The position numbers and the translations under genes were made by a program. Positions 27,301-62,163 of a DNA stretch of 64,000 bases are shown in pieces (positions within the stretch are counted from its first letter, which is position 1; every line of letters starts with the position of its first letter). Below the pieces are notes generated by a model. It did no database searches and was not told the origin of the DNA. It was given only the letters and a program-made list of their open reading frames with translations. The stretch is from contig JBDRKX010000047.1 in NCBI GenBank assembly GCA_043813605.1, positions 53,539 to 117,538 on the forward strand. Direction: 5' to 3'. Source of the stretch: Elusimicrobiota bacterium. Lineage in GTDB: Bacteria > CG03 > SLGR01 > JBDRKX01.

Positions 27301-30300
27301 ACAGTGAGTTTTTCTCCAGCTATGGCAGGTTTACGATTCAATATGTAGTTTATATATACATTCTGCCAAACCAGAACAATGATATAGAACAATGGGAACA
27401 AGAGTATTTTATAATCATATTCAAGTATACCGGGAGCTATGACATAAGCAAGCATAAGAGCAGCCCCGCTCTTTATACCAACACCTAAACTACCCACAAA
27501 AGACATCTCTCTTTTGCTGTTTATATAATTTCTAAATACATTCTTAAGCAGGTTTTCTTCTCCGAAGACCTTCCTCTGGATACCAAGGTATATATCCCTG
27601 TGGTCTTCATAATCCTTTTCGCCAAAAACAGCTGAATATGCTTCGTGAAAAAGTATCTCGTCAAGATACTTCTGATACGTAGAATCGGTTATAAAATCTC
27701 TTGCTATGGCTATTTCGGCGGAATTCGCGTATGCGAGCATGTAATCTTCCCTGCCCTTTACTACCGCGTCAAATGCTACTATATCACCCCGCGCAAAATA
27801 TTCTTCCAGCCTGGCAAGTACAAGCTGCATCTTTTCATCACCCGCAAGTCCGGCACGGTCTATCTTTTCCTTCAATTCGTCCAGTTTTCTCCGGATAAGC
27901 ATTTCTCCTGCACTGTTCAGTTTGACCGTTTCTACCTTTCCTGCTTCTTCAAGCGATCTGCCTTTACCTATAGCGCCGCCGACAGCAAGTACAGGAACCG
28001 CTTTAGCTTCCAATGCCCTGTAAATATCTTTCAGTTCGGTTTCAAGGGATTCTTTTATATTCTGTAAATATTCTTTTGCAGATAACGGCTTGTTTTTTAT
28101 AGCTCTTTTTTCTTTGCTCGGCAGTGTTGTATCAGGTGAATCTGTGATATCAGTACTGTCTCTGGATTCATAACCCCTCATCCTGATACCCTCGGGGCCT
28201 ATAAGCGCATAGGCGCCCTGTCTGTCAAATTTTTCAGACATACCTTTATCTACTCCGAAATGCGCGTATTTCTTATCTTTGACCATAAAAGGAAGGTTAA
28301 GTTTTATCAGCGTATTGTGACCGGTAAACCAGTGTAGGACACCCAGTCTGGACTGTATATCGGCTATACCTATTTTCTTTATATAATAGTTTACGTGGTT
28401 GGGCTTGATCTTTATTATCTTATCCGCATACCAGGAATATACCCTGTCGAGCGCCGGCCATCTTTCCCTGAGACTCCTGCCCGGAGCTCTAAGATCGGAT
28501 GATATGATATCAAACCCTTTAAATAGATTTTTCCCTTTATATTCTTTGCCTTTATATTCAACAATTATATCTGCTCTGTTTTTTCCTGCGGTCTGGACAG
28601 GGAACCAGCTGTGTGTTACCAGGTTACCGTAGATATCTTTAGAATACAGGCTAAAATTCCGGCGGGTATATTCTGACATGGCCTGCAAGGTATGGCTTCT
28701 CAGATAGTTTGCCTGGGTGACTTTTTCGCCTTTAAACTCTCTCCGGTCTTTATTTATCAGTTCGATATCGGTATCCGGATCTTCGATCATACTGTTAAGT
28801 TCTTTAATAACGGATTCTCCCCATCCCTCATGGCTTGACCAGTCTTTGAACCACCATTCGGTAGATTCGTAGGCCTGTGTGTTTATCGATTCGAATACCC
28901 TGTACCACCACTGTTCTTTTCCGCCGGACTTTTTGTCTTTTACCGCAATATCCCGTCTTTTTTCAACTATCCCGGCAAGCTGTCCGGCAAGAGCCACTGC
29001 ACCGTCCCAGGCATCCAGCTCGGTATTATCAGAGATCCAGATGCCCCGTCGGGCCTCCCTGCCTTTCATCAGTTCGCTGTGTATCCTGTGCCACCACTCG
29101 GGGGATGTCTTACCTACACCGTTTAATCCGACAAACGGTGACGGAACCTTTATCCTTTCGAAATTTCCAAGAAATTCTTCCCATATATCCTTCTGCTGGC
29201 CTGTCCAGCGTTTTTTATGTTTATTATGGAGTCTTATATATTCTTTTCTGATATCTCCTATTTTTCCGTCGAGTACTTCCTCCTGGAACCTGTTCTGTTC
29301 ATCATTGTATTCAGCCAGTCGGGCCGCCCACCATAACATGTTTTCGCGTTCCGCTTCTTCTCCCGCATAATTCTCAGTATTTCTGTTTCTTCTAACCAGT
29401 TCTTCTGCTACACTGTCGCCGTGGAAATCAAAACCTTTATACCACGGCAGATGCCCGCCTTCCATATTACCGTGCACCAGGAGACAATGGTTGCCCGGCA
29501 CATAATCGACCTTCTCTTTTCCCGCTTCGTCCAGTTCCATGGCAAGCAGAGTGCACTTTATACCGTGAGCGCCCCTGTCAATATAATCACCATTTAAAAT
29601 TATCTTTGCGTTTATATCATCGAACGATACTCCCTGTTCTTCCAGCTGTTCTGCCAGCGGCACCACCCCGTATTCGATCATCACTTTTTTGCCCGTGAGC
29701 TTGGACAGCGCGTCACTCAAAAGCGAATTAAACCTGTCGATATCTCCGTGAAAATCCGATATAACCACGGTCTTGGGCAGATTACCTGTACCCGGTTCAG
29801 CCAGTTCTTTGTCTATCTCTCTACGCAGTTCATTGATCTGGGCAATACGTCTCGCTTCAAAAAAGATACTATAGATAAAAGGATCAGTAGAGCTCCAGTT
29901 TTCTTCCATGACATTATCTATCATTTCACGTATACCAGGAGTCTCTATCCTGAGATATTTATCGCTTATCCTGCCGACCGTCTTGTCTATCGGCACGTTT
30001 TTACTTATACGGTCATATATGAAAGGGCCGATCGTACTGTTATAGAACGCGGCAGAATCAGCTTCAGATAATGCCAGTAAAGCCTTGTAATAGTGGCTGT
30101 CTTCCGATACCCGTGCTAACATTTCCGTTCCGGCAAGACTTACAGTACCTAATCCGGCGTCATGATGTTCGATCAGAAACATCATATCTTTTCTCACTTC
30201 TTCCGGTATAATTCCTTGAAGCAGATAATCAGCATAGCGGGCACTGTTACGCGGGTGCAATAGTTTTTTTCTTACCTCTTCATCGAGATTGTTGTCAGAT

Positions 30301-33300
30301 AAATACGGCATCCTTGCAGCAGGGAGATACCTCTCTATATCATGAAAAAGAGCCGCAAGTATAAGCGCCATATCCGCATCAGGTTTGATCTTAAGAAGCC
30401 AATCCAGTACTTCTTTATAATGTCGGCGGTCTGTCAATTCAGTATAGGCATCTTCTGGGTCTATAGTATCGTATATGAATTCTGCGAGTTTAAATGCCGC
30501 ATCCAGCCTGCTTTCAGCAGTCTTAACGCCGTACTGCTGCATCCGGTTCAATATAGCCTCTTTCTCTGTCTTAATTACAGCAGGCAACAATATCTTGCCG
30601 GTATTTGTCCTGTAGAGAAGTTCTGCCGCTTCTTTTTCACCTTCTGTCAGTTCATCGTATTTTCTGCCCTGGGCTTTCGTATTGTACCAGGCTATCGCTT
30701 TATCCAATTCAAGCACTTCTTTGCCTTTTGTGTACTTTGCAGTTATCCCTATCAGTTCTTCTTCTATCCTATCAAGCCCCTGGTAACTCAAGGCGGGGAA
30801 CTGGATAATAAAGGATTTTATATCCCTTATCTTTTTCTCCTGTTCGATACGCGTAATATCTTCTTCGCCGATATCTCTGATATTTCCCCAGTTTTCCCTG
30901 GCTTTAACCATCATAATTTTAACATCTTCAGCATTTTCCAGTATCCGGTTCTGATAGTAACGGAAGAGCCACAGTTTCAGAGCCAGCCCCCTGACACCCA
31001 TCCTGCTTATAAGGTATATATCCGCCTGCTGTTCTTCCCAGCGCAGGCTGTCATCAGCTGTCAATCCTTCCCTCTTGAACACCTTTTCAATATCCCAGGC
31101 ATTAATAGCCGTGTGATGGCCTTTTTCGTGCAGTACACCGGCTTCTATGATATTCTCCCCGAGTTGAGGTGAGACTTTTAATATTGAATTCATCAATTCT
31201 ACATATTCATCATCTATTTCCAGTATCTTGTTTTTATGAACAGACATGAAATTATCCATCCTGCTGAGTATCATCCGGCCAAATCCGTGTTTACTTGCTA
31301 TCTCTTTTATTTTTTTGAGCGTCTCGAAATACTCTGCGGTCTTTACCGAAAGCGGTACTGTTTTGCCCGGTTTTTCGGACAATTCTATTACGTCGAGCCC
31401 TTCTATCTCGTCAAGCTCTATGATCCCGAGCATCGCTCTCGGTCTTTCCTGTTCCGCTTCAGGTTGCACTATAACCGTCCGCGCACCTTTTTCTTCTACA
31501 TATACTGTTATCCAGCCGGGTATGTTCACACCATACTCTTCAGCAACTTTAATAAACGTATCATAATCTTTCCCGGAATAGAATGTTATTTCATTTAATG
31601 CTTCAGCAGGCAGTTCTGCTACTCCCTTTAACCGGCCTTCATCTGAGCGTTCGACATTCATTACATATTTTTTCTTTATACCTATAACCGCACCTAACGG
31701 ACCTTTGTTAGCAACAGTCAGCGGTGAAAGATCATCTAATGTATTTATGCCTTCAGGTATATACGCCGAGTATTCTTCATCCCTCATAGCCTCACTTGCC
31801 CGGGCGGCGACATCTTTTTCGGTGAGCATCCTGTAACCCATATACTCGCGCTCATGCTCTCTCCATCTTTCAGCAGTCTCACGGCTTGTTGTTACGAATA
31901 TCCCTTCCTCCACACCGCCCATAGCTTCATAAGTATTCTGCCGGCCGATACCTTTCTGTACCAGTTTCCCGTCTTTAAGGATCTCAAGGAGGTAGCTTGT
32001 TCCCTGCCAGTAGACAGATTCTTCAGGCCCAATACGCTTGAAGTTATATATATCTTTAAGGTGTTCAAGTTTTTTTGAATACTCGATCTCTACTATACTG
32101 TAAGCATCGACAGATGATTCATAAGCAACTTTTAAACTGAAATCTATCTTATCAGGACCGTTCATAAGCCTGCACGCCTCTTCCAGTTCTTTTGTATCCT
32201 GTTCAGATACAGGGAATTCCGGGATATCAACTATACTGCGCCCCGGCTGGCTGGCATTTATTAATTTGGCTATCTTGGGCCACTTCGCCCCTTCTTCATC
32301 CAGTCTCCGGTAATACCAGTCCTTAAATCCTGTCCACCATATCTCAAGGAACTCTTCACGTGTTGCAATACCTCCAATAAAGAACTTGACGGTGTTTTCT
32401 CTCATATCCAGTTCATATGGTTTGTCACCTTCAGGAGATTCATTTATAAACTCTGATTCGAACGGCAAGCTGTAATATCCCAGTCTCATAAGATAAGATA
32501 CCTGTTCATGCTGTATCTGTTCAAAATCGATCTCTTTTGATATTGCTCTCGGTCTCTCTTTTTTTACAGCTTTAACTTTAGCGGCAACTCGTTTTTTTGC
32601 CTCGATCTCTACAGAGAAATCTTCTCTGAGTATCTCCATCGCCTCTTCTGCTGAATCCACTATTCTAAGAATTGATTCCTTCTCATGCCGCTGGGTATCG
32701 TCACTGACAGCTATTGTCGGCGGATCATATGACTGCATTGTCTTGAATATGGTGTCTTTTATTGGTTCCCAGAAATCTTTGCCGATAAGTATTATGGGCC
32801 TCTTGGGGAACTTTTTCGTCTGCATACTGCAGAGTATGCCGAAAAGGTGCATCATTGTCTGCCGGCCGCCGGGAGCTACTACAATCGCCTGGGAGTTCTT
32901 TGAAAGAAGCAGTTGATGATTAGTATTTCCGGAGATTACTACATTGTTTTCTATTGTTTTTTCATTTTCAGTCTTATTTTCATACTTATCCATTGTGAGC
33001 GTAGACTGTATCATACTCATATCTTTGCGGTCTGTGGATTCGACGATCTTATCCAGGAGCGTTCCCCGGCTGCCTATACGTACCGGAACTCCCTCAGATA
33101 TGATTTTGTCTTTGAGTTCCCCTACTGCATCAAGAGCATCAGCATCGTTTATTATATGCGGTTCCCCCATGAATGTCACACTCGTATCCATACTGCTCAG
33201 TTTACGAAGACCAGTATTCAGCTGCTCGTTAATGGCATTGAGCCTGTTTTCATCCATATCGATCGGTATGAAGTTCTTTGAAGCCTTTTTCATGAGTTCT

Positions 33301-36300
33301 ACGGCCTCTTCAGGAGTATCCGCATAAAGCGGTTCGGGTATGTCTTTTGCTGATATACCGGATTTTCTCCAGCTCTCATAGAAAGAATCTACTATCGGTT
33401 TCCAAAAACTCTTATTCATAAAAACTACGGGGACCTGGTAATACCATACAGCAAAGAACTCCTCAAGTGTTCCGAGACCGCCGACTTTTATATAAACACC
33501 TTTTGCATTTTCGTAAAGACCCTGTTTCCGCGGCAGGAAATAACTGCATGCATGGCAATCTTCTATATATGGGTTTACTTCCTGCTCCCACGGGACTACT
33601 ATATTGAAACCCTGGGTGATCAGGTCTTTTGGAAGTTCACCTTCATATTCGTTCTTTGCCATTATAAAACCTTGAGGCGCACCTTCCATAGCCGCCCCGG
33701 GACCTGCCCCTGTCCGGAGAGGCTCCCGCTCGAGGAAAATAAGTCTTCCCAGTTTTTTACCTTCTTCATAGTCTTTAGTACCCGGTTGTGTCCGAGCTGA
33801 ACCGAATACGACATAAGCAGGCGCCCAGCCGCTATGCGCTTCGTATACTTTCCTGCGCTCCATCGCCAGAACCTGTGAAACCGAAACAGCATCCTGTTCT
33901 GTCAGACGGGTCTCTTCACGTTTAAGGGTTTTTAGTACTTCGGCTATCTTCTCAAGAGATTTCCTTCCTATGCCTTTTACTCCCTTAAGTATTTCTTTCA
34001 GTTCCGCCATAGTATCAATCATTGAATAGTTCTCTGTAACTATTCGGACTATTTCATCCCTGTTCCTTAATCCCTTTATATCTTCCAGGTACAGGGTAAC
34101 CTTTCTTGCCATCGCTTCAGCTTCAGTCATCGTATCCAGAGATATCTGCGCGCTCTTTTTCAGGAACGAGTAGTCTTCTACCACCTGTATCTCGACCTGG
34201 TTCTTACGGGATTCCTCGAGTATAGTTGTCAGGCCTTCCAGGTCATCAATTTCAAGGAACGGATTTGAAAGAGTTTTTACCTTTGCCGGGATCCACTTCA
34301 ATGACCCGTTAATAAACCTTTCGACTTCAAGGCTGTTCCAGTCTATGCGGTCAATATACAGTGACCTTATGCCTTTGTCATCCGGTTTCCTTTCGATCGG
34401 TTCGCCGCTGATAAGCTTTTCTTCAGCCGTATATGTCACAACTCTTATGTAGTATCTTTCCGATTTTTTGTTCCGTATGAGTCTCTGAATACCGGGCACC
34501 TTAAAAGCCTCTTTCAGTGTTCTTTCTTTGGAATCGTGGTATTTGATCCTTATCTTTTCCCCTGTCAGAGCCTGGAGGATATCACCGTCATTCCTCACCA
34601 TCGACAGGAAGATGATCCTGGCATCAGGCCTATCTGTGCTCGAATACCATTCTTTAAGAGTCATCACATGCGGTACCCGGTTACTGCCATACTTTCTCTT
34701 CATCTCGGTTAACGCAAACTCTTTCTGAGCATCGGTCAGAGTAACTACCAGCGTATTATCAGGCGTTATCATGGTGCCGAAGAAACCGGCAGTATAATAG
34801 GATTCTATTTTATTCATGATACCTGTTATTTCTGCCGGATTGATATAACCGCCTTCTTTTTTTATCTCCCTGAAAACCTTCTGCTGTATGAGTACAGAAT
34901 AAAAATCAGCCCTGCTTGTCAGCATTGAGGCCTTTATATCCAGTCCGGGATCGTTTACCCTTAATATCTCGGCACGGAGGATAAGCGATGTTTCAGGATT
35001 GTACCTTACGGTTGTGGCAGTAATGGGTATCCAGCGTCTTCTATCGGAAAACTGCCTGTTATACTTCTCTATAGCCTCTACACGGCTTAACAGAGTCTCC
35101 GGCAATATACGCTGAAGCGTCTTTGTCGGATTCAAAGGCAGCGGCAGAATATCCGGCATATTGCTAAACCTGTCGTTTATGCTTCTTATCGCTTTCTTAA
35201 ATTCTTCAAGTCTTCTCTGTTTTATCTTTTCGGACAGTATCTCTTCGGTAACAATCCATTTTTTGCCGTCCCATACAGGATATTTCCATTTATTATTCTT
35301 TTCATCCCATATTCTTATCCGAGACCGGGCAATGTGGGCTCTATCCAGTATAAGCGGCAAACTCTTGACGTTCTTTGCCGGCCAGTTCCTGCCTTTCAAC
35401 CCGTTTACCATCAATACAGTATCGCCGGATTTCCCTGTTCCTATTCTATTGGCTACTGCCTCGAATTCTTCCGGCGCTCCTGCTAACGGGCCGACATCTT
35501 TTTTATCTGCTGAATAACCGCGTATGGTAAATCTTTTCTCTCCTGAAGCAATCAATTCAAAAAGTTGTATTACCTCTTCTTTTAAACGTCCTTTAAAAGG
35601 ATAATGCGTGGTAAATCTTGAAGTGAAATCATGAATTCTGCCTGCAAGTTCAGTATCCCATTTTATCTCTTTCTTCAAGGCGATCTTATTGGCAGCAAAC
35701 TCTATTGCTTCATGGGACAATACCAGGGCAAGTGATGCCGACGGAAGGTCTTCGAATATTTTCCTGCTGATATAAATTGTATTGCGTTCTATATCGGCAG
35801 TCGCTACAAACCCGGGTGGCGCCCTTTCGTTATCAGTATTTACAAGTACCAGGTTGGGAATGTTTATTGCACTCTGTACTTTTATCATCCCGAATTTAAC
35901 AGGAAGTTTCAGCATACCCGATATTATCAGTTTCTTTGCCTCCTGCGATCTTTTTTCGTATTCTTCTTTTCCCTTATCCCAGTACCCGGCTTCCTGTTTT
36001 GCAACTTTGCCTTTTCCATGCTGGATTATAAACCCTTCACCGTTTTTTCGCGCCCACTCTATAAACGCCCTGTCCTGTTTAGCCTCATAGGGACTTACCC
36101 TTTTTGTCGCAGAAACTCCCGCTTCTACAACTGACTGCTTTTCATATTCTTCGGCCATATCCTTTAATTCCTGTTCTATCCTGTCGAGGGCTTTGTAATT
36201 GAGTGCCGGAAAATAATTAAGGAAAGACTCGATCTTTAACAATACCCTTCTTTTATCTGCAAAAGAAAGATCTTTTTCGTGCACAGCCTTTATCAGATCC

Positions 36301-39300
36301 CAGTTACTTTTTTCCAGGCCCATAAATACTTCCACGTCTTTTACACTTTTCAGTATGTTCTCGTAATAAAAATACTCAGTAAACCACAATCTGACCGCAT
36401 AACCTCTTATCCCCGCCTCGCTGATAAGATATATGTCAGCCTGCTGTTCCTCCCAGAAACTTTCTTCCATCATGCCCAATAAACCCATACCGGCCATCTT
36501 CTCCGATATCTCCCAGTAACTCATACCAACATGGTGTCCCTTTTCATGGATCAATAAATCCCTGATTATCTCTTCAGCAAATTCCGGCGACATCTCTGAA
36601 ATTGCAGCTACCTTTTCAACGAACTCATCCCCTATCGTCAGAGTAAAGTCTTTACTTATCGTTAAAGGATACTTTATCTTCTCTAGTTCCATGCTCTGGA
36701 AACCAATATCATTTGCAGTCTTTTTGACTTTTTTCAAGGTTTCAAGATAGACATCGCTTTTTCTTGAAAGATCCAACTCTTTTGATACCCGTATCTCTTT
36801 GAATTCGATAAGTTCCCTGATATTGAAAGCTTTATTGAATGCTGAAGCCATAATAACACCTTGTTCAGCCTCCTGCCCGTTAAAATTATTTTCTATTGAT
36901 ACCCTGTCAAGATAATCAGTATCTATGGCATCATACGAGCCGAAAACAAAATAGACATTTTTAAGACGGTTCCTGTTGGCCTCTTTCAGTACCCACTTGA
37001 TCTCGTTTGTGGTAACGCTCTCATGTGTATCGATATTCTCGTCCGCTACGAAGAATACTACCGGTTCACCTGTTCTTGTAAGTTCATCTACAAAATCCTC
37101 CGAAACATGAGACGATAGTTTCAGATCATGCTCGGCTCTCATAAAATCCTTTAATCCGAATATGGTCGACAGTGCCCAGTATATTCCGTGTTTTTCTCTC
37201 ATTCCCAGTGCATATCCGAAAGTACTGCTCGGCGACAGTTCTTCAGTTTTTTCACTGGTCCTTGAACTTTCATAGATATCCCTGTCCACTTCTCCGGTTA
37301 CACGCATACCTTCTATTTCACCGCGCGATACTGCAGTGAAAAAGTCTGCTATGGTATATACTCCTGCAGAACTTTTTTTCAGTTTAGATAGGCTTATGTA
37401 ACGAGAAACCCCGGCTTTTTTCATTTCTTTCTCAAGGTTAGTCTCTTTTATTGAATCAGCTATAAGGTGGGAATCTGGTTTATCATATTCAATTTCAGGA
37501 GTGGGTTCAGCTGCGGCTTCCGGCTCTGCAGGCAGAGGGGTAGAAGCCAGCCCTTTTATTACCGCCGGTAGTTCGGGAAATTTTACTCTTTCGGCATATT
37601 TCGGGTCTTTCTGATCGGCGATCCTGTAGCGCCAGTTGTACCTGACGAGCTCGGCGCCTGTGAGATTGGGGTTATTTATCCGGTAATGGTCCCCCACTTC
37701 TTCGCCCACGGTAAGATATATCATTGATGTCTTCATGCCGAAAAGCTTTTTGAGCCAGGCAGTGTAATTCTCGATATTCCAGCCGTTATACATGTGTTCG
37801 TCGCCTATTCTCGGTGAATCATGCGAAGTAAGACTCGCCATCACACGCCCGCCGGCCTCCGGCCACCATTTCACTTCCGCCATCTGATGCAGGCCCAGTT
37901 CTTTTATCTTGTTTCCGACCTCGAAAGGCGCGCCGAGCTGTTCCACTATGGGCAGCTTGTCCCTCACAGAATATATCTTCTTTATCTCTTTCAGCAGCCG
38001 GTCCCCGGCAAGATATTCATCGCCGCTCATCAGTTCCTCTTTTCCAACCCATCCGTAAGCCATGTGACCAGCGTCTATCCTGCCGCCATCAAAACCCAGT
38101 ACATCCAGCTTGAACTCGTGCTGTTTCAGTATGAGGTCGAAAGGCCGTTCCGAGGATGCGAGCCCGGTATAACTGTATTGCGCAAGCGAACCCCATGAGT
38201 GCGGAGCACCAAAAGCTATGACGCCTGGACTCTTATCAAGACTCTGGAAATATCCGCTATTATCTCTTGCGCTCGCCCAGACTTCTGCACTGTCCTTCCC
38301 CATGAAATACGGGGCATCATAGAAAACCCGGCCGCCCGCATGATGTATATCCCTGACGGCTTCGTCCCATTGTCCGAAGGCGACGTACTGCATAAATCTG
38401 TAGAATCCAATCATATCCGAGTAAACGGAATACACACTCTCAAAATTCTTACCGAACTTACTGCTCATTTCGGATATGAGATTCCCGAGTTCCGCCTCGA
38501 GTTCGAGTGTATCACCATGCCCCGAAGATATCATATTTTCTATACGGTACCGGGTGAGGACCGCGTTTACTATCTCACTGTTCCAAGTCCACCACGAATC
38601 TTTGAAAGTATTCGTAAAGGCCATAAAACTGGCGTAATCATCGAGCCACCAGGAGTGTTCCTGTGCAAAATCATCGATTTTTCTCCTGAGCTTCATATGC
38701 GCGGGCTTTTCGCTCTGGTTCAATATTGAATACAGTTTTCTGGCATATACTGTTTCCGCCAGTTCCAGTTTTTCGTAATCAACAAAATCATTATTGTATT
38801 CAGGGAGGGAACTGAAATCATTTTCAAAATTATCAGAAGCCACCTTGTTCCAGTTGATGAAGAGTTCATTCAGCGCGTAACTGCTTGCAGCGCTGTACGG
38901 GCTGTGCGCCGCGTCCCGTGTGGGATTGACAGGCAGAAGCTGCAGTGTGTTGATGCCGATTTTTTCCCTGTATTCCCTGAAGGTATCTGCAAGGTCGGTG
39001 AATTTACCTATCCCGAAATCTCTCCCCGCTTTCTGTCTGAGAGAGAAAACAGGCACTTGGAGAGCGAATATCCTCCTTATTTTAGAAACAGGAGGATCGA
39101 CATAGAGCCTGATGTTTCCCGCAGGGCCGGCCACATAGGTCCACGTAACCCCCTTATCAACCGAGAACCGCACCGTATATTCGTAATCGCCGGCGAGCCT
39201 GGGCTTGAGTATCCCCTTGAACCTGTATCCCTCACCATCCGAGCGGTCGTACCTCATGTTTATCGCGCGCCATCTCTTCTTCGCGGGAGCATTCTCCCTG

Positions 39301-42300
39301 TCGAGGTTTGTCCATATCTCCGCCCTGATATCCGCAGGATCTATATCACCGCTGACAACAACAGCAGCGTAAACATTCATCTTTTTTAGGGCATTGGTAT
39401 ATATTTTGCTACCGAGGTCTGGCTCAGCCCAGCCGGCGTTCACTATCTCAGCAGGCGGCGCGCGCGCCGGCGGTAAAACCTTGAACGGGTCTGAAGATTC
39501 AACTCCCATCTCCGATGCGAGCTTCCTTACTTCGGCATAAGCCCTGAGTATCTCGCTCACTCCCCACGCCTGTGCGTCGCACCCGCGCGGAGTATGCGGC
39601 GCATCACCGTCCATTATCTCGGATATGCTGCCAACGCCCGCTTCCCTCAGCTGCTTCTTAACAGGTTCAAGGTACCCCAGCGCTCTGCTCACAGCCTGCG
39701 CGGAATTATTGTTCGCTTTCAGGTAGGCCAGGATAAACTGGCCGTAGGGCCAGGTCCACGCGGTACCGTTATGATAAGCGGGTTTACGCTGTGTATCCTC
39801 ATCTCCCTCGTACCGTCCGCTGTAGGGATCGAACGGGTCTTTGAGGTGCGCTATCCCGCGCAGCGGCACATTGATCTTTTCGTCGGCGAGGCTCCTGAGG
39901 GCGCCGGGTATCACAAGTTTTGAAGCAACGGTATCCATCACCTTCCTGGCCTTGCCGGCACTAAGCATACCGTAGAGCACCGCCGTTACCTGGTTGGAGC
40001 GTATTGAACCATCCGGTATCCCGTCGTAGGCGCCCTGACCGGGCCTCGCGAGGATGCAGTCATTGAGGTAGCCTCTCCTGTTCCAGAAAAGCTCGTTGAA
40101 ACTCTTTTCTATCTTACCTGCCAGAGATGGATCGGCGATACCGAGGGAGGACAGGTATTCCACAGCATTATGCCAGAGAGCCTGTATCTCCACGGGATAC
40201 CCTTCCCTGGGCGTTCCTGCTGGAAAGTTCGTGTCCATCCATGTGAAGTGCGACGGTGAGAATACAAGGCCGGATTCGGTATCCATAACGATTCCGTTCG
40301 GAGTTCCTATCCTGTAATTCGTGTATATTGATTTCAATATGTCCCTGAGCGTCCTGCCCTCGACTACCTCCAAATCCACTATACTCTTGTCCCCCGTAGT
40401 CTCTATATACTGCTTTACTGCCTCTATGAACCACAGCGGCGCATCAGAAGTGTCCCTGTCGGAGGCGTCTTTACCCCTGATTATATTCGGGAGCGTCCCC
40501 TTGTCTTCGAATATGGCGAACTGGATGAGTATATCCCTGACCTCTTCAGTCCTGCCGGCGCTCAGCATCCCGAGCGCGACTATCAATGTGTCGCGGCCCC
40601 AGTCGAGGAACCACGGGTAACCGGCTATTACTGTCTTGTGACTATCCCTGTCAACAATGAACTTATCTAACGAAAGCGCCATTATCCGGGCGAAAGGATC
40701 TTCCTGTAACCTTTCAGGCAATTTTTTTATTACCTTCTTCTGTTCTTCCAGCTCTTTGTTGAACAAGCCCTCTATATTCTCATCTTCGTATAAATATTCC
40801 CTGCCTTTCGGTTCCTCAGTAGAAGCAACCCAGCTTACAGTTTCCCCTTCAGTCAGAATCATTTCAAAATATCCGGGACTCAAAGCATCAGACTTTGTTT
40901 CCATTCCCCTAACTCCTTCTATCGAGTGTTCAATATTATAATGCCACTGAGGATCCTTATGATATTTCCCGCGACCGGAGATAATAGTTATCCCTTTGAA
41001 TGGATACCAGTCACCCGTATTAAACCACAACCCATCCAATCCTTTTTTTAATAAATCCCCCTCTATCCTGCCTGTCTTATCAAACCACAGTCCGTCTTTT
41101 CCTTTGGTTACATTATGAAAATCTCTCCATTCCAAATGATGCCGGACATTTAATTTAACACTGCCTTCACATTTCAGTAAATGGTACCGCGCAATTACTG
41201 TGTTCTCTCCCTTTACAAGCTGAAGAGTTTTTTCGATAAGAATTCCTTCTACTTCATACTTCCATGTCGGAAGCGGATATGCTTCAAAACTAACCATGTT
41301 TTCAGCATCAAGCGGATAAGACACCCCATTGATAACAACATTTTCATAAGACCCTTTCACCAGAACCTTTCTGTCCTCTGGAACATCTGGATTTATATTG
41401 GCTGCTAAAAGAGCATCATACTTGGAATAGTATTTACCGGGTTGTATAGCCGTTCTTAGCATTGCACCTTTTCCATTTGCAAGTGTTATTGTTCTTTCCG
41501 CTCCGAACTCTCCTTTTGATAATACAAGGTCTTTTTCACTTATTTTCTGTTTATCAATTCTTATTGCGTCTTCAGCAAACTCGAATAGTTTTTGCTGAAT
41601 AGGATTATCTTTTACGGCTTCGTGGTAGGCTTCGTAGGAAGGATATGTTTTGCTTACTACTACTTCTTTATACTCCCCGATCTCATGTTCAACAAGACTC
41701 TTGAGGAGTTCATCTGTTTCCGGCGGGCTCCTTCCGGCGAGGCCTTCTAAGAATTTTGCATGGACAAGAAGTGTCACCTCTTTTGTAACCTCGTTCACTT
41801 CCAGTGTTGCAAGCGACCAGACGTCTTCTGTTATCAGATCAGGGTTAGCGCTTACTTCTACGGATGGTGTATACCCTGCCATGATATGGTTTAACATGTT
41901 TTCAAGCTTTTCAGTATATTCTGTTTCATCATAAGGCAGTTCTTTTCGTTTTATTATCTTCTGCCGGTAGATGTCTATTAACGCTTTAGAGACATCTACT
42001 GCTGATCTAACGGGGAGTGTAACAGGAGTCAAAAGCAGTTCCACCTCCTTACCCAGAGAAATGATCTTTTTTTCTTCCGCAACACCAACGAGCTCTTTTT
42101 GCAATTCACGCGCTTCTTCGGCTTTTTCCAAATCACTGATCCATTGTTCTATGTCTTTCAGTTCATCTTCGACAAATGTTATTTTCACAGGTTTCCTATA
42201 TCTGCCGAAAAGCGTGTCCGGCTGTTGATCCGCTTTTTCATAATCGACAATACCCTGACTGTCTAAAAGGAATTTCTTCAGGCCCGATCTGTACTCCAGA

Positions 42301-45300
42301 TCCTTAAGATACCTGTCATGCGCTGCAGTATCTTGTTCAGGCTCTTCATCGAGGAACTGCATACCTATATCCAGGAAGAAGATCACTCCGTCAATCTTCA
42401 ATCCTGATTCACCGGCATGCCGGGCAGCACTTTTTTCAAGAACCCGCCAGTTATCATCTTCAGTGTATGTCCTCATCTTGTATTCCACTTTATCTTCGCG
42501 GACTTCCGCTATCTCGATCTTCTGACGGCTGGATTTACATTCCACTATAAACACTTTGCCGGTTTTCTTGTGTCTTACTACCATGTCGAGTTCAGTAAGA
42601 TATTCCCCGTTCTTATACGCGTCCCGGCCCGCTTCCAGTATTTCAAAACCTGCATCACTGAAAAGTTTTATAGCATCAAGTTCGAGCTTTAAGCCCACAT
42701 ACCTTGAATAAAGAGTACCTGTTATTATCTCGGTGAGCCGTTTGTGTTCATTAAATTCATGCACGAGGTCTATCCACGGTTTTTGAGAATATTCAAGCAT
42801 ATCCGTTTCTATATCTTCGCTATACCTGATCTCTATAACATCATCCAGCCGGGCCTTATTATTCTCAACATATTCCCTGAATTCACTTATTCCCCGGGTA
42901 TCTATGACTATTATGGCTTTATCGAATTGACCTATTGTCTTTGGTACCTTTCCGCCTTTCCCGTAGTTCTCGTTCAGATCGTCCATAAGACCGGCCAGTC
43001 TTTTTATGCCTTCATTGACAATAGACTCATGCTGCTGTTCTTCTGTAGCTGTTTTGTCCGGAGGATGATAGAATACCTGGTGCGTGCTGACCAGAGCGCG
43101 TTTTTTTCTGCCTTTATCATCTGGATCACTGTAGTTATCTATCACAGCATCCACCCATTCAAGACTCCAGTCTATACTTTCATTGGATTTGGCTACAGTC
43201 TCACTCTTTACCTGTCCGGTTTTTATGGCAAAAGCGATTGAAAGCAGTTTTGCTCTCAACTCTGCATATGTGTCGTTCATTATATCGACCGTGTCGCTTA
43301 AAGACTCGTCAGTGTATCCGTATTCGTCTTTCAAAAGCTTAACAAGTTTATCAATATCCCTTCTTAACCAGGCGGCTTTTTTCCTCAATACCGTATAGAT
43401 CAGATCACCTTCTGGTTTCAGGATATCCGACGGCTCTTCATAGGAAGCCTCCGGTAACGGTTCTACTCTGCTTAAACCGAATTTTGTATGATAATGGATA
43501 CCTGTCGCAACATTTATTACGGGTCTCTTATGATACCTGAACACAAGGGCTTCTTTACTGCTCAAGACGGACGGCTGAGCGAGGATTATGCCTATAGGCT
43601 GTTTCTGTTTCCTCAGTTCCGGGATAAATTTTACAAGCTCTCTATACTTTGATTTCTTTACTTTTTTCGTAGGATCTTTCATCAGGTACCCGGGGTCTTC
43701 AATATATCTGAGCATGAGTTCCTGTTTATCCAATTGCTGCATCACATCCCGGTAAGTTGCCCTTTCTATCCAGTTTTTGGATTCCACTGAAAAGAGCCTG
43801 CCTTCTTTATCAGCTACAATGCTGTCCAGCTCAGTTAAATATGCTAGACCACCGCTCTTGTTTTTATACTGGTAACTGACAGATAGAGCTTTAATAGTAT
43901 AACCCCGCTCACTTTCCAGATACAGATCAGATAACAGCTCACCGGTTGTTCCCGCTACTTTATGCGGATAGATATAGGTACCCGAAACATCAGTGAGGAG
44001 ATCCCTTAGAGTATTGAGCATTCCAGGTACATTCCGGTAATAAAACAGCAATGCTAACACGGCATCGAAATTACGATACTCTCCGGATCCCATTATCAGC
44101 TGGTACAGAGCAAATCCGGCTTCCTTAAGTCCCTTATTAAACCCGACAGCTTTGGGTTCTATTTTTGTATTTGAATACATATTTTTTATCAGCCCCTCTA
44201 TCATCAGCAGGAATATCTTCTTGTATTCAGCCGGAACTTTTCTATAGTATTCATCAACATATTTCATGAATTTTTTAGGAATATCGGGCTGTACAGCATC
44301 TTTGGCTGATTTCGCGGATCTTATCAGCGCATCCAGTTTCCTGCCTAACGGAGTACCGGAGAGATCGGGCATGATTTCTTCCGATATAAAACTGTCTATA
44401 TATCTTCTAAAACGCGGCTGGAGCGGGTTCTCTATATTATCCGGTTCATATACACCCAGTTCCGTCCATTTAAAGATCGTTCTCTGTATATTCTTATATA
44501 CGTTTCTATGCGCTTCAAGGTCTGTTTCCGGGTATGTCGCTGAAAAGGCCTCGTGGAAAAGTATCTCGTCAAACAATTCCATAAACTCGGCTCTTCTTAT
44601 AAAATTGCGGCCTATAACTATACTATCATCGAGGGCATAAGCAAGCAGGTAATCGTTTTTGCCTTTTATTACAGGATTAAAAGCAACTATTTTGTCCTGT
44701 TCGTAATAATCCAGCAATGTTCTATGTGCAGGCAAAACATTGAACAATATTGTTTTCAGGATTGTTGATTTTTCTTCAGGAAGGATGGCAATAAGTGATT
44801 GGGTGGTTTCATTTTTCGGATCGATCAGTTCTTCGATCAGTCTGATAGCCTGTTCATCAAGTTTCCCGCGCGCAAAATAGGATTCAAGTTTATCCAGCAC
44901 ATAGAATGCATTATCCGACTGTTCTGCAGGCACATCTCCCAGTAGTGCGAACACTGCATCCAGGGTCTTCTTTTCGAAATTCTTTATACTGCTGTAAATA
45001 AAAGCTTTTTCAGTCTCATTGAAAGAAGAAGTTTTCTGAAGGGCGGCACTGTCGCGCGAAGAGCCATCCCCTATCGCACCTTTAACACCGATAATTCCAG
45101 CCTTTACCGTTTCGGCCTTTTTGCGGCGCGCTGCTTCGCGGCTCACAGACATAAGCTCTTCGGCAGTAACTCCTTTAGGCAATCTTTTCAAATCTTTTTC
45201 GATCGTACTTTTTATGAGAGGAAAGTACTTATGTGAAGTTATGAAATGGTCTGAAGCGATAAAGCCTTCTGTATGCACATAGACATATGGAAGGTCTTCG

Positions 45301-48300
45301 AATGAGAGAGGCCGTCTGACAGCCCGCTTTATCATTGCGAGATCCGTGCTTGGTACTGACTGACAAAGGAGTATTTCTACACGGTCAGTCCGGTTCATGT
45401 CTTTCAGTTCGGGAACGTATTTTAGCCACGCTTTGTAAGGACCACTGTGGTTTTCGAGTTTCGTGAGTATTCTGTCATAGCGCTTCATCTGTTTAATAGT
45501 TGCTCTGGTATCTAGTGAATAGCGGTTGTTCTTCGCTTCGGCCGCAAAAACCTTTCCATCTTTAACGAGCATCATATCCATCTCTCCGGCCATGATATTC
45601 TTAACATATTCCAGGCTGAATGCTCTCAGTTCGTATCCTTTCTCTTCAAGGTATGCCGCGGTCTGAAGTTCCCCGGTCAGACCGGAAATGTGTGTATAGT
45701 ATGCTTCTGTAAACCGGAATCTTCTTGAATGGCCAAGGCCGAGCAGTACATTCTCAAGACCCGGTACTTCACGGAAATGGTATAACATCGCTACTATTGC
45801 ATCAATATCTTTTGCATTTTCGTCCGCCATTATGTTTTTTAGATGATGCGAAACGATAGGCAGCCTGTTTTCAAAACGGAATGGCGGCGCCCTTTCGGAA
45901 GTTACACTGTAAAAATCACGGTTATTTATTATGCCGTTTATTATAGCTCTAAATGCTGTTTTATACTGCTCCGGTATAGCATCAAAGTCCTGCTCTACGC
46001 TTTTCCAGTATTCATATTTAGCAGGTATTTCACTGAAAGAAGAGCCCCTGAGTTCATTTATTATCCTGGAAAATCTTTTCTCGAAAGGCACAACAGTCGA
46101 CATGCTTCCAGTGACTCTTACATCTACATAGTAGCGGAGAGCGTCTTTCAGCGGATTCTCTTTTCCGAAGATCAGCCTCTGTATGCCTTCATAAACCGAT
46201 CTGTGAGTCTTGTAATCATGTTCACCGAACAATGCAGAATACCCTTCATGAAAAAGTATTTCGTCGAAATATTCCCTGAATTCCGTAAATTCGGCATCAA
46301 AAAAATCCTGTGCCAATACGATCCTGTCACCGGCAACATAAGCCAGTAGATAGTCTTCACGGTTGTTGATAAGGGATTGAACTTTTTCTATTTTTCCGTT
46401 TTCAAAATACTCAAGAAGTGTCTTATGGACGGGTATTGCTTTATATAACAGGTTTTCCAGGTTTCCTTTGCGCTTTTGGGGCAGTTTTGACAGTGTGTTT
46501 TTTATTATAAAGTTATTGGGATCGGTCAGTTCATTGAAAAACCCGAGCATATCTTCGTCCAGGTCACTGCGGGCAAAATATTCTGTTAATAATTCCAACG
46601 TATAATCCGTAAACTTTTTATGCTTCTTTTCAGCTGCTTCAAGTTCCACAAAAACAAGTTCCTGAAGTTGTTTACCCAATTCGGCTATTTTGTCTTCTAT
46701 TAAGACTTTATCCTGCGTTTCCAGCCGGTTTGTCCGCTGGTATTCTGCCATTTTAAGGGCTTTTCCCTTGCCTATCGCTCCCCGGAGTCCTGTAACAGCC
46801 TCTATCGCAGGTAAAGTCACCAGATTCCTGTATGACACCTCTTCTGCAGGCACCTCCCGCAGTTCTTGAGTAACACTCTTCCTGATATTGTCAAAAACCC
46901 TGAGTTGAGCCATAAACACCAACATAAGATCCGAACCCTGAAGAAATTCCGCAATTTCAAACTGCTTTTTCTGGACATTCATACCGTGCATCAGATGCAG
47001 TTTCGCTACTTCTTCCGCATGTTTCTGAGGATAACCGTATCGCGTAAAATTGTCTATTTCTCTTCTTGTAACTGCCCAGTCTTTATAGTGCATCTGACCG
47101 AGAAACTGTATCTGTTCTTTGCTAAGATTGAATTTTTTATTTAATTCCATATCCATTCCGGCTTCAAGCAGTTCGTGAATGAGTATTTCCGGCATAGCGG
47201 GATTCTCGGAATCGAACCTCATCTCTATAGCCGGTCTCTTTTGCCACAGATATATGTTCTCTTCAGCCCATGTCTTTTTTCCTTTTTCAAGGCCGTCTTT
47301 AAACTCAATACTTATGTCAAAAGCGCTGATGATCTCCTTAAGTTCGTCAAACCTGTATGCCCTGTCTATAGCATCTTTCAGCTGGGGCAGCATTGCCCGA
47401 TCCATTCTGCGGATATGAAGATCTATTCCTCTGTATCCAATTTTTCTTTTATATAGATTCTTTACCAGTGATATACCGGCCGCCAGCGGAGCTATAGCCG
47501 AAAGGACCCAGGTGACAAAATATGCCGGCAACTCATCCAGCCCGGCAAACAGGCCGCCAAGCATATATTCTCTCATGCCTGACGGTTTTAATCCGGCTTT
47601 TTCCGCCATTACCGTAGGCTGAAACCGGCTCACATGTACTCTCTCGTGGAGGAGACTGGCCATAATATGTATCCCGGATAACACACTGGTCAACACTGAT
47701 CCTGCAGCAATGATATGCCCTACATTCAAATATAGCGTACCGTCTATTATGCCTGCAACGGCATAGTTTCCGCTTAAAGATACAAATTCTTCTGTAGACA
47801 TCAAACGGTAATCATCCTTAAAAAACCTCTTGATCAGTTTAAGCAGGGACGGATCCAGCAAAGCCTCAAGTTCGACAGTTGTATCTCCGGATTTAAAATA
47901 TCCTTTTTCAAAAAGTTTGACCATATCCCCTGTTTCGGGTTCAACTGCGTATATTCTTTCAATCATATTTTTCAGGTATTCTGTACTGCCATATTTTCCG
48001 GCACGCACTGTAGCTATAAGGAACAATCCGAAAAACGAAGCAAGAGAGACGATGGATACGAGAGGCATTCCGAAAAGGAGCATATCAGCACCCAGAAGGA
48101 GAGACCATGAAAGCGCCGCACTCATGAATGCAATGGGAGTATATACTACCTGGCCCGCGATTATACCATGTCTGTTAAGAACTATGTCCCATAACTTATC
48201 TACTTTTTTAAAATCCCCAACAGACATGTTCTTAAAATGATGGCCATATATCAAGTCACTGTCCTCGTGTTCCAGTATAAGCCGGAACGCTTCGCGGTTA

Positions 48301-61630: not shown

Positions 61631-62163
61631 GGGTTTACGTTCGGGCACACAGCCCACCCGTAAATACCTCTTATGGGATTAATATCATACTCATCTGACC
61701 TGTTTACAATGCATTTTTGCAGCGGATTCAGGAATCTTAGAGACCACCACTGATAAAACTTCAGTTTAGGCAAGATGAGCACCTCCAGGTCTCTCTTCTT
61801 CATGCTGATTTCTCTGACTGCTATTCCTACAAAACATATCAGCATCAGAAGTATACTCTTATCGCCGGAAATGATTATGGTACTTATTATGTATGCCATA
61901 AACCCCGCGAACTTCCTGCTTTCTTTGCGTTGTTCAGGAACAGTCGGTATCTTTTTCTTAGCAGTAACAGGGTTAAACATCCTTTTTGCCATCCGGTCCA
62001 CTTCAAAGACCGCACGGGAACAATAGTTGGAATTTTTTATGATTATTGATATGTGGTTACTGTAGTTTCTGTAGGACTGCAGTATTCCCATAAATGAGAA
62101 TATTACAACGACTCCCCCCGCAATAATGCTGAAAAATACTTTTCTTTTAGCGAAAAAAGACAT
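61612..62163 (-). CDS. Hypothetical small membrane protein (183 aa, two hydrophobic helices); may not be a real gene
   Basis: Track ORF. Hydrophobic segments SIIAGGVVVIFSFMGIL and YIISTIIISG...LLMLICFVGIAV. The TGA stop at 61614-61612 falls inside the terminator hairpin loop. No recognisable domain. Confidence 0.35.
   Translation of the reverse strand: MSFFAKRKVFFSIIAGGVVVIFSFMGILQSYRNYSNHISIIIKNSNYCSRAVFEVDRMAKRMFNPVTAKKKIPTVPEQRKESRKFAGFMAYIISTIIISGDKSILLMLICFVGIAVREISMKKRDLEVLILPKLKFYQWWSLRFLNPLQKCIVNRSDEYDINPIRGIYGWAVCPNVNPHFVLR

Follow-up and report, generated by a model that had tools for sequence, protein, structure and literature searches.

Bacterial giant proteins can reach tens of thousands of residues, and it is an open question if they work as single chains or are cut into separate enzymes. 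The window, i.e., the whole 64,000-nucleotide stretch of DNA analyzed here, bears on this question: its minus strand is almost wholly one open frame (open from 3 to 61580), and two copies of a module with a zinc-metallopeptidase-like HExxH motif are interspersed among the enzyme domains that Pfam recognizes in this frame. The locus raises the question of what these modules are and whether they could act on the protein that carries them.

The host protein has an N-terminal hydrophobic anchor, and the closest homologue of its N-terminal part is labelled Elusimicrobiota. Pfam shows it to consist of many fused enzyme domains that share a single frame: HD, DUF3141/PHB-depolymerase-like, GDE_N/GDE_C, GH77, LOG, Rce1-like, Bac_transf, YrbL-like, Glucosamine_iso, Metallophos, HAD, GH130 and GH94. 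A sister giant protein is encoded upstream of the host gene. The modules and their surroundings are as follows:

3-61574, minus strand: host gene, a single ORF of at least 20,526 codons with its ATG at 61574 and its C-terminus beyond the left end of the window
38568..39056, minus strand: N-terminal part of a GH77 4-alpha-glucanotransferase, aa ~7509-7671 (PF02446, E 2.3e-36), the nearest recognized enzyme upstream of copy 1
36138..36815, minus strand: module copy 1, aa 8256-8481, a zincin-like domain with a C-terminal helical extension
33933..36068, minus strand: segment X, aa 8505-9216, directly after copy 1 and without a Pfam match
33291..33605, minus strand: LOG / Lysine_decarbox-like domain between the two copies, aa ~9326-9430 (PF03641, E 1.1e-25)
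30726..31394, minus strand: module copy 2, aa 10063-10285 (family HMM match aa 10079-10285, E 3.5e-73)
29175..29774, minus strand: Metallophos domain (calcineurin-like phosphoesterase), aa ~10603-10802 (PF00149, E 2.1e-7), the nearest recognized enzyme downstream of copy 2

The original prediction placed HEKGHH and a conserved tail in two modules at 36750-36350 and 31350-30950, on a segment of about 130 aa. All four motifs do fall inside these intervals and both copies lie in the same reading frame, but the repeated unit is larger, comprising about 225 aa in each copy (alignment of aa 8256-8481 with 10063-10285; 91/228 residues or 40% identical, E 8e-47). With a profile of all seven known members, exactly two copies are detected in the giant protein. 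A large segmental duplication of 30950-36750 was ruled out, as only the ~225-aa module is common to both parts. The motifs are located as follows:

36531-36548, minus strand: HEKGHH of copy 1, from aa 8345
36534..36548, minus strand: HEKGH of copy 1, with H8345 and H8349 as predicted zinc ligands and E8346 as predicted general base
36420-36455, minus strand: WEEQQADIYLIS of copy 1, from aa 8376
36435..36449, minus strand: EQQAD of copy 1, with E8378 as predicted third zinc ligand and D8382 as the ExxxD-type Asp
31113-31130, minus strand: HEKGHH of copy 2, from aa 10151
31116..31130, minus strand: HEKGH of copy 2, with H10151, E10152 and H10155
31005-31040, minus strand: WEEQQADIYLIS of copy 2, from aa 10181
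31020..31034, minus strand: EQQAD of copy 2, with E10183 and D10187

The peptide WEEQQADIYLIS is identical in both copies with 31/36 nt the same, HEKGHH likewise with 13/18 nt the same, and the differences are synonymous; across the module, the same codon is used at only 37 of 90 identical residues. HExxH occurs three times in 20,526 aa, two of them in the modules, and the sequences around copy 1 are unrelated to those around copy 2. Given this rarity, the synonymous differences and the unrelated flanks, the copies are neither a chance similarity nor a recent DNA repeat. Additionally, synonymous changes inside identical motifs show that the motifs are under selection at the protein level.

The module was not recognized as any family in the original prediction, and the database searches agree with this: no member scores above threshold in Pfam, NCBIfam, PHROGs or PADLOC, and only five relatives were found in two large protein collections (1.84 billion representatives and 5.8 billion clusters). 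Four of these came from a HMMER scan of the 1.84 billion representatives and one from a further search, which gives a family of seven sequences when both window copies are counted; a homology search with copy 1 as single-sequence query was empty. Three relatives (P0001-P0003) are parts of large proteins or of fragments, and the MAGs they come from carry the labels Elusimicrobiota, Omnitrophota and Atribacterota. P0004 and P0005 are standalone homologues of ~200 aa with no signal peptide in their sequences; P0004 has a TM/TIR-like protein of 641 aa as its neighbour. The module is consequently not strictly unique to the giant-protein class as had been suggested. Back-translated WEEQQAD, [IL]HEKGHH and YLETLKK... 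gave only chance matches in genome and metagenome contigs, none upheld by tblastn. Similarly, tblastn against 50,697 phage and 72,556 plasmid records gave no match to the module. By these searches, the module is classed as a new, very small and sparse family.

The only sub-threshold Pfam matches found in more than one member are Zincin_1 (3/7) and Peptidase_M54 (2/7), which are also the commonest; both cover the HExxH stretch, and the best Zincin_1 score is 16.1 bits against a gathering cut-off of 22.4. Peptidase_M48 (PF01435) has no match at E <= 10 in any of the seven members, and hhalign against E. coli HtpX (sequence checked against PDB 3CQB) aligns the HExxH stretch only (E 0.072, probability <1%). 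Sequence-profile searches of the PDB returned nothing relevant; the matches had E 0.1-1.4 and included YppE and a T4 lysozyme lobe. Collectively, Pfam, the PDB profile search and hhalign against HtpX provide no significant sequence link to any curated peptidase family.

While pairwise identity among the seven sequences is only 19-40%, the putative catalytic residues are invariant. The H, E, G and H of HExGH are kept in 7/7 members (alignment H74, E75, G77, H78), so the zinc-metallopeptidase-like HExxH of the original prediction stands, except that the extra His of HEKGHH varies, and the family motif is therefore HExGH. A possible third ligand was to be sought 20-60 aa downstream, and 28-29 residues past the second His of HExGH there is a Glu, invariant in 7/7 and the predicted ligand (E107, corresponding to E8378 and E10183, the second E of WEEQQAD). 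The tail, described as strictly conserved, is indeed identical in both window copies, but family-wide only the E, the A and a few hydrophobic positions are kept. Within E-x-x-A-[D/N/Y], E107 and A110 are invariant and the D position is N in four members and Y in one; the relatives have ES/TQAN, EFKAN or ESQAY where the window copies have EQQAD. The window copies read E-x-x-x-D, which is the gluzincin form, as quoted for MecR1 with HELSH ... EKVCD (PMC6925264).

An AlphaFold2 model of the module, computed from an alignment of only seven sequences, has a pLDDT of 85.8 and a pTM of 0.85. A model from the two window copies alone was poor (pLDDT 53) and was left out of the analysis. The confident model consists of a helix (5-21), three strands (25-29, 35-37, 42-46), a second helix (47-59), the helix carrying HExxH (61-80), a short insert helix, a long helix carrying the Glu (102-134, with E107 near its start) and a C-terminal helical bundle (142-210) with the conserved motif FPALxxxxLDRIE. 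It thereby contains the N-terminal helix, three-stranded sheet and two helices that define the zincin core (PMC5512222). As in gluzincins, HExxH of the model lies on an alpha-helix, and E107 is positioned on the next conserved helix, where the Glu third ligand, often in ExxxD, is expected. Foldseek against the PDB ranked projannalysin and selecase at the top, and the top matches in a viral structure library (best E 7.7e-3, probability 0.98) were SprT-like proteins and phage metallopeptidase/VWA proteins. All enzymes among the structural neighbours are peptidases. A resemblance to the C-terminal lobe of T4-lysozyme-like (GH24) proteins had no significant sequence or fold match behind it, and this lead was dropped because there was no lysozyme among the fold matches listed.

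Given the conserved residues and the predicted fold, we consider it likely that the module is a zincin-fold, metal-dependent peptidase-type domain, and it probably represents a new and active gluzincin-type metallopeptidase family. We infer zinc binding, peptidase activity and substrate, and the mechanism is modelled on the zincin superfamily. One Zn2+ would be held by H8345 and H8349 (H10151 and H10155 in copy 2) together with E8378 (E10183) of the next long helix. The Glu of HExGH (E8346, E10152) would polarize a zinc-bound water for attack on a peptide bond, with the substrate bound as an added strand by the three-stranded sheet that precedes the HExxH helix. The family-specific C-terminal helical bundle probably shapes or gates the cleft.

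As both domains sit between unrelated enzymes of a single polypeptide of >20,000 aa, the most likely role is one in processing. Limited proteolysis of the giant chain or of the upstream sister giant protein might release or activate enzyme segments. That the modules process the giant multi-enzyme protein itself is suggested tentatively, by analogy. It is rather doubtful, although conceivable, that they are dedicated built-in proteases of a bacterial 'polyprotein', making site-specific cuts that free single metabolic enzymes and perhaps also cutting the neighbouring giant protein. Segment X might be a partner or substrate region, since it is found with the module in two relatives: it is 35% identical to P0001 aa 2594-3314 (E 1.6e-112), where the equivalent has a weak AAA_12 match, and parts of it flank the module of P0003 on both sides. 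No hydrophobic segment is predicted in aa 4706-11392 of the giant protein, which places both copies in one compartment with GDE, GH77, LOG and Metallophos. A search of the giant protein for linker or cleavage motifs that recur gave none. EAEQ was considered as such a motif and rejected, as it occurs only twice, each time just upstream of a module, and is absent upstream of the P0001 module. The standalone P0004 and P0005 cannot process a giant polyprotein in cis.

The modules could instead be active zincin peptidases with an effector role against foreign proteins or proteins of the envelope, e.g., the surface of prey or host or the peptide stems of peptidoglycan, and not in self-processing. 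We regard this as unlikely. Glycogen debranching enzyme, GH77, LOG and glucosamine-6-P isomerase are typically intracellular enzymes, and these are the neighbours of the modules. A crude count gives six hydrophobic segments before aa 4707, the first after only eight N-terminal residues; the module region would be cytoplasmic provided that each of the six crosses the membrane. The existence of standalone homologues fits an effector, but they lack a signal peptide. An effector role would also be consistent with the link drawn from Omnitrophota giant proteins that bear hydrolase and peptidase domains to predation and the degradation of cell walls (bioRxiv 10.1101/2023.11.21.568195), and with polyvalent proteins, where some zincin domains are allowed to be effectors (PMC5512222).

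The remaining alternatives concern the activity itself. A zincin-like metal-binding fold that is non-proteolytic, i.e., an amidase or esterase on a small-molecule or glycan-linked substrate, or a regulatory or binding cleft, would suit the mostly sugar-metabolizing enzymes around the modules, the large helical extension of their own and the lack of a significant sequence match to any peptidase family. However, 7/7 members keep the full HExxH plus Glu triad unchanged, general-base Glu included, and the enzymes among the structural neighbours are without exception peptidases, which makes this reading distinctly improbable. We give very little credence to a non-catalytic helical domain (a lysozyme-like C-lobe or a spacer) with an incidental HExxH, where the zincin appearance would be an AlphaFold artefact of the shallow alignment. 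We thus retain the peptidase reading, with processing as its tentative role. A zincin domain that is embedded in the giant protein, present twice and apparently active would offer a concrete and mutable candidate processing enzyme, and its ~225 aa would lend themselves to expression and assay as a separate unit. The gluzincin superfamily would gain an extremely sparse new family of seven sequences. If the built-in protease reading is true, a zincin family that arose inside these giant genes would perform in a cell what corresponds to the maturation of polyproteins in viruses.

Among known systems, the best structural neighbours are the minigluzincins proabylysin (4JIU), projannalysin (4JIX) and selecase (4QHF). 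Minigluzincins are standalone proteins of ~105-110 aa with a His as third ligand (PMC6925264), whereas the module has ~210-225 aa, is embedded in a giant protein and carries an invariant Glu at the ligand position, and so falls outside this group. The catalytic core of the M48/M56 membrane peptidases (BepA, Ste24/ZMPSTE24, HtpX, BlaR1/MecR1) is also among the closest known systems. The module core lacks their inserted transmembrane helices, and the family combines a soluble scaffold with an ExxAD signature like that of M48; the similarity to M48 is at the fold level only, with no profile match. In contrast to both groups, the module has a family-specific C-terminal helical bundle, is twice the minigluzincin length and shows no significant sequence relationship to either. 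HEXXHXXGXXD/H is the motif of Zincin_1 (PF06262, the mini-zincin type of Acel_2062) and of Peptidase_M54, the archaemetzincin family (PMC3890501). In the module family, the G and D/H past HExxH vary; neither HEXXHXXGXXD nor an above-threshold score places it with the Zincin_1/Asp-zincin families.

An analogous architecture is found in phage and plasmid polyvalent proteins, which carry one to five zincin domains among other domains and for which autoprocessing has been proposed (Iyer et al., 2017, PMC5512222). Their zincin-like MPTase domains, published as 12 clades, have a core of three strands and an N-terminal helix, one helix with HExxH and another with the Glu, besides inserts that vary (PMC5512222). 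The host protein resembles them in having two zincin-like copies with this same predicted core among unrelated enzymes in a very large polypeptide. However, the module has no tblastn match in the phage and plasmid records, and its host is a chromosomal-looking giant gene in which enzymes of carbohydrate and nucleotide metabolism predominate, in place of effectors for anti-restriction or DNA handling. Peptidase-mediated processing has already been suggested for Omnitrophota giant proteins, where the peptidases discussed are C39 and S8 (West-Roberts et al., bioRxiv 10.1101/2023.11.21.568195). By a term search, neither this preprint nor 10.64898/2026.06.07.730766 mentions a zincin, an HExxH or a zinc domain. 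The host protein itself fits the 'multi-enzyme metabolic cluster' class of giant proteins from Omnitrophota and neighbouring candidate phyla (10.64898/2026.06.07.730766), with which it shares a length of >20,000 aa, an N-terminal anchor, scattered hydrophobic segments and many Pfam enzyme domains.

The giant protein is encoded by an open minus-strand frame that extends over window 3 to 61580 (first ATG at 61574; at least 20,526 codons) and fills almost the whole window, and the 3' end of its gene lies beyond the window's left edge. The original prediction of paired HEKGHH motifs, each followed by WEEQQADIYLIS, holds for this protein, as both were found twice, in one frame of the minus strand, where they had been placed.

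Motifs of the two module copies (aa, giant-protein numbering)
window 36531-36548, minus strand: HEKGHH of copy 1, aa 8345
window 36420-36455, minus strand: WEEQQADIYLIS of copy 1, aa 8376
window 31113-31130, minus strand: HEKGHH of copy 2, aa 10151
window 31005-31040, minus strand: WEEQQADIYLIS of copy 2, aa 10181

The segment of about 130 aa first proposed is homologous between the copies, but pairwise alignment shows that the real repeated unit, the module, extends over some 225 aa (aa 8256-8481 paired with 10063-10285; 91/228 identities, E 8e-47), with unrelated flanks. Peptides identical between the copies differ in DNA (31/36 and 13/18 bases identical), and only 37 of 90 identical residues use the same codon. 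A recent DNA repeat is thus ruled out, since the same peptides have different codons, and the sequences argue for an old duplication kept by protein-level selection. In the 20,526 aa there are just two instances of the tetrapeptide EAEQ (0.28 expected by shuffling), at window 36860-36871 and 31448-31459 (minus strand; aa 8237-8240 and 10041-10044), each some 20 residues ahead of a module boundary.

The module is rare. A word-indexed search of copy 1 against 5.8 billion clusters gave zero matches, while the two-copy profile, run with HMMER against all of 1.84 billion representatives, retrieved four proteins, and a six-sequence profile one further relative.

Relatives of the module
P0001: 4045 aa, 'Elusimicrobiota bacterium', module at aa 3570-3772, E 1.5e-35
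P0002: 1369 aa, partial, 'Candidatus Omnitrophota bacterium', module present
P0003: 1443 aa, partial, 'Atribacterota bacterium', module present
P0004: 201 aa, metagenome, standalone module
P0005: 215 aa, metagenome, standalone module

No more copies came from four scans of contigs from genomes and metagenomes, or from phage or plasmid records. No EAEQ was seen ahead of the P0001 module. The existence of standalone homologues suggests that the module can function alone. P0004 ends 50 nt upstream of a gene for a 641-aa membrane protein, and the two (L001:403-2984, plus strand) are a possible two-gene unit. Read from sequence, the neighbour has several hydrophobic segments and the genes flanking the pair look glyoxalase-like; the neighbour's C-terminal region has a sub-threshold TIR_2 match (E 3.6e-4, 'RIFVSYTWEDE').

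Conservation was measured in an alignment of the seven sequences, whose overall identity to copy 1 is 19-40%. Invariant positions are G22 and F23 at the start of strand 1, H74, E75, G77 and H78 of HExGH, E107 and A110 (E-x-x-A), and I87, G119, A124, W128 and L189. The third zinc ligand that was to be looked for downstream has a candidate in E107 (E8378 and E10183), 28-29 residues past the second His. Of the proposed conserved motif and tail, HExGH and ExxA are invariant, but the last His of HEKGHH varies (H/L/I/Q) and hence is no candidate ligand, and in four members an Asn, in one a Tyr, stands in place of the EQQAD Asp. Both window copies have the pattern E-x-x-x-D, a gluzincin form also quoted for MecR1 (HELSH ... 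EKVCD; PMC6925264). By the established zincin mechanism, His/His/Glu would bind one Zn2+, the HExGH Glu would activate water, and the substrate would lie along the sheet's edge strand.

AlphaFold performed poorly from the two window copies only (pLDDT 53), whereas the seven sequences gave pLDDT 85.8 and pTM 0.85, with all five models above 84.

Elements of the predicted fold
5-21 helix; 25-29, 35-37, 42-46 strands; 47-59 helix
61-80 helix bearing HExGH
84-93 short helix
102-134 long helix, invariant Glu near its start
142-164, 169-178, 191-210 C-terminal helices

Structural neighbours of the model, with scores
proabylysin 6.5 (87 aa, 2.4 A)
selecase 6.2
BepA 5.9
projannalysin 5.8
M48 peptidase 3C37 5.7
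ZMPSTE24 5.2
ERAP1 5.0
Ste24p 4.7

Between these peptidases the ranking also lists unrelated helical bundles, which plausibly match the modelled C-terminal extension. Foldseek against the PDB ranked projannalysin and selecase on top, not significantly (E ~0.2), and a viral structure library returned phage 'VWFA/metallopeptidase', 'zinc-binding metallopeptidase' and SprT-like matches (best E 7.7e-3, probability 0.98). The predicted fold is zincin-like, in a model of high confidence.

No curated family in Pfam, NCBIfam, PHROGs or PADLOC claims the module. Its Pfam matches are all sub-threshold and on the HExxH stretch, and both recurrent ones are zincins: Zincin_1 in three of seven members (best score 16.1 bits, cut-off 22.4) and Peptidase_M54 in two. 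PDB sequence profiles gave no relevant match. With hhalign, E. coli HtpX (query sequence confirmed over residues 54-157 against 3CQB) gave E 0.072 and a probability <1%, the alignment being limited to 'MSPEFAEEII..LIHEKGHH' against 'MSPDEAEAVIAHEISH'. Minigluzincins have His as third ligand (PMC6925264), whereas the module has an invariant Glu at the candidate position. Given these sub-threshold scores, the non-significant HtpX alignment and the minigluzincin His, membership of Zincin_1, M48 and the minigluzincins was rejected. Because no curated family claims it, the module is, on sequence and model, a putative new and very sparse family of gluzincin-type metallopeptidases, present twice in a giant multi-enzyme protein. 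This agrees with the original reading of an unrecognised zinc-metallopeptidase-like family, given the invariant HExGH and Glu and the zincin-like predicted fold.

The whole 20.5-kaa protein contains three HExxH motifs. The third, HERVH (window 47634-47648, minus strand; aa 4645-4649), sits between hydrophobic segments aa 4623-4641 and 4688-4706, with 'GTLYLNVG' before it and 'DELPAY' 34 residues after, an ExxAY resembling ESQAY of P0001. The region is without match to the family HMM or Pfam; a third zincin-like site, highly diverged, might lie here.

Across the whole frame, Pfam scans found numerous unrelated enzyme domains, and both modules are positioned between such domains.

Pfam domains of the giant protein (all minus strand)
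HD domain
DUF3141 / PHB-depolymerase-like
GDE_N and GDE_C, E 7.6e-75
GH77
LOG / Lysine_decarbox
Rce1-like
Bac_transf
YrbL-like
Glucosamine_iso (glucosamine-6-P isomerase-like)
Metallophos
HAD hydrolase
GH130
GH94, E 1.6e-70

A simple hydropathy scan found an N-terminal anchor and 14 more hydrophobic segments, none of them in aa 4706-11392, and therefore both modules would share a compartment with GDE, GH77, LOG and Metallophos. The N-terminal 638 aa have only two fragments as homologues, one labelled 'Elusimicrobiota bacterium' by NCBI. Besides the module there are many diverged internal duplications (100-450 aa, 30-46% identity, unrelated flanks).

Internal duplications (giant aa, minus strand)
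14042-14408 / 14553-14929
1252-1473 / 19179-19400
2412-2617 / 3128-3356 / 4277-4464, three copies
12394-12641 / 17389-17616 / 18903-19129, three copies
4889-5425 / 5446-6021

The sequence suggests that the giant gene grew by module duplication and shuffling. GC content across the window is 39-48%; in every 4-kb bin the plus strand has a GC skew of -0.10 to -0.19 and an AT skew of -0.07 to -0.21, a strong and uniform asymmetry that fits a single long purine-rich coding strand, the minus strand.

Regions outside the module are also shared with its relatives, among them one that adjoins copy 1.

window 33933-36068, minus strand: segment X, aa 8505-9216, directly after copy 1, without Pfam family

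Segment X shares 35% identity with P0001 aa 2594-3314, and pieces of it flank the P0003 module on both sides; as it accompanies the module in all three proteins, the two appear to travel together. The counterpart of segment X in P0001 weakly matches AAA_12 (SF1-helicase C-terminal). P0001 aa 1409-2091 matches giant aa 5749-6444 (39% identity). This P0001 stretch, whose homologous region is repeated in the giant protein (aa 5190-5440 and 5749-6444; window ~42249-46013, minus strand), has a sub-threshold NucS_C match and, as read from the sequence, PD-(D/E)xK-like motifs ('DVFAADKEG..YAVEAK', 'DLVVEDKEG..FIVECK').

On contig L003, the genes after P0001 encode a 178-aa membrane protein and then a protein whose N-terminus resembles that of the giant protein (39% identity). 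The window has a small ORF homologous to that membrane protein (~61648-62130, minus strand; 36% identity, E 2e-33) and, upstream, a large ORF open to the right edge (62284-63999, minus strand) whose tail weakly matches the P0001 C-terminal tail (E 1e-6). By these homologies, gene order is conserved between the window and this 'Elusimicrobiota' MAG contig. On L003 the zincin module belongs to the upstream gene and is not part of the giant gene downstream of it.

For a role, the nearest analogy comes from polyvalent proteins of phages and plasmids, of which about 36% have between one and five zincin-like MPTase domains. These often lie between other domains, and the favoured reading is autoproteolytic release of fused domains (PMC5512222). 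It has been suggested that C39 or S8 peptidase domains process the giant proteins of Omnitrophota (10.1101/2023.11.21.568195). Because of this analogy and this suggestion, the role we rank first, as a tentative possibility, is to process the giant chain, either in cis or in trans. That the modules are peptidases in some other role is about as likely, and that they act as effectors on foreign or envelope proteins is rather unlikely. A chemistry other than that of a peptidase is improbable, and a module without any catalysis highly improbable.

The module offers a way to test whether, and by what means, giant proteins of bacteria are processed. The architecture of the giant protein matches the 'multi-enzyme metabolic cluster' class of Omnitrophota giants (10.64898/2026.06.07.730766; also 10.1101/2023.11.21.568195), and zincin peptidase domains within multi-domain proteins of very large size are a kind already known.
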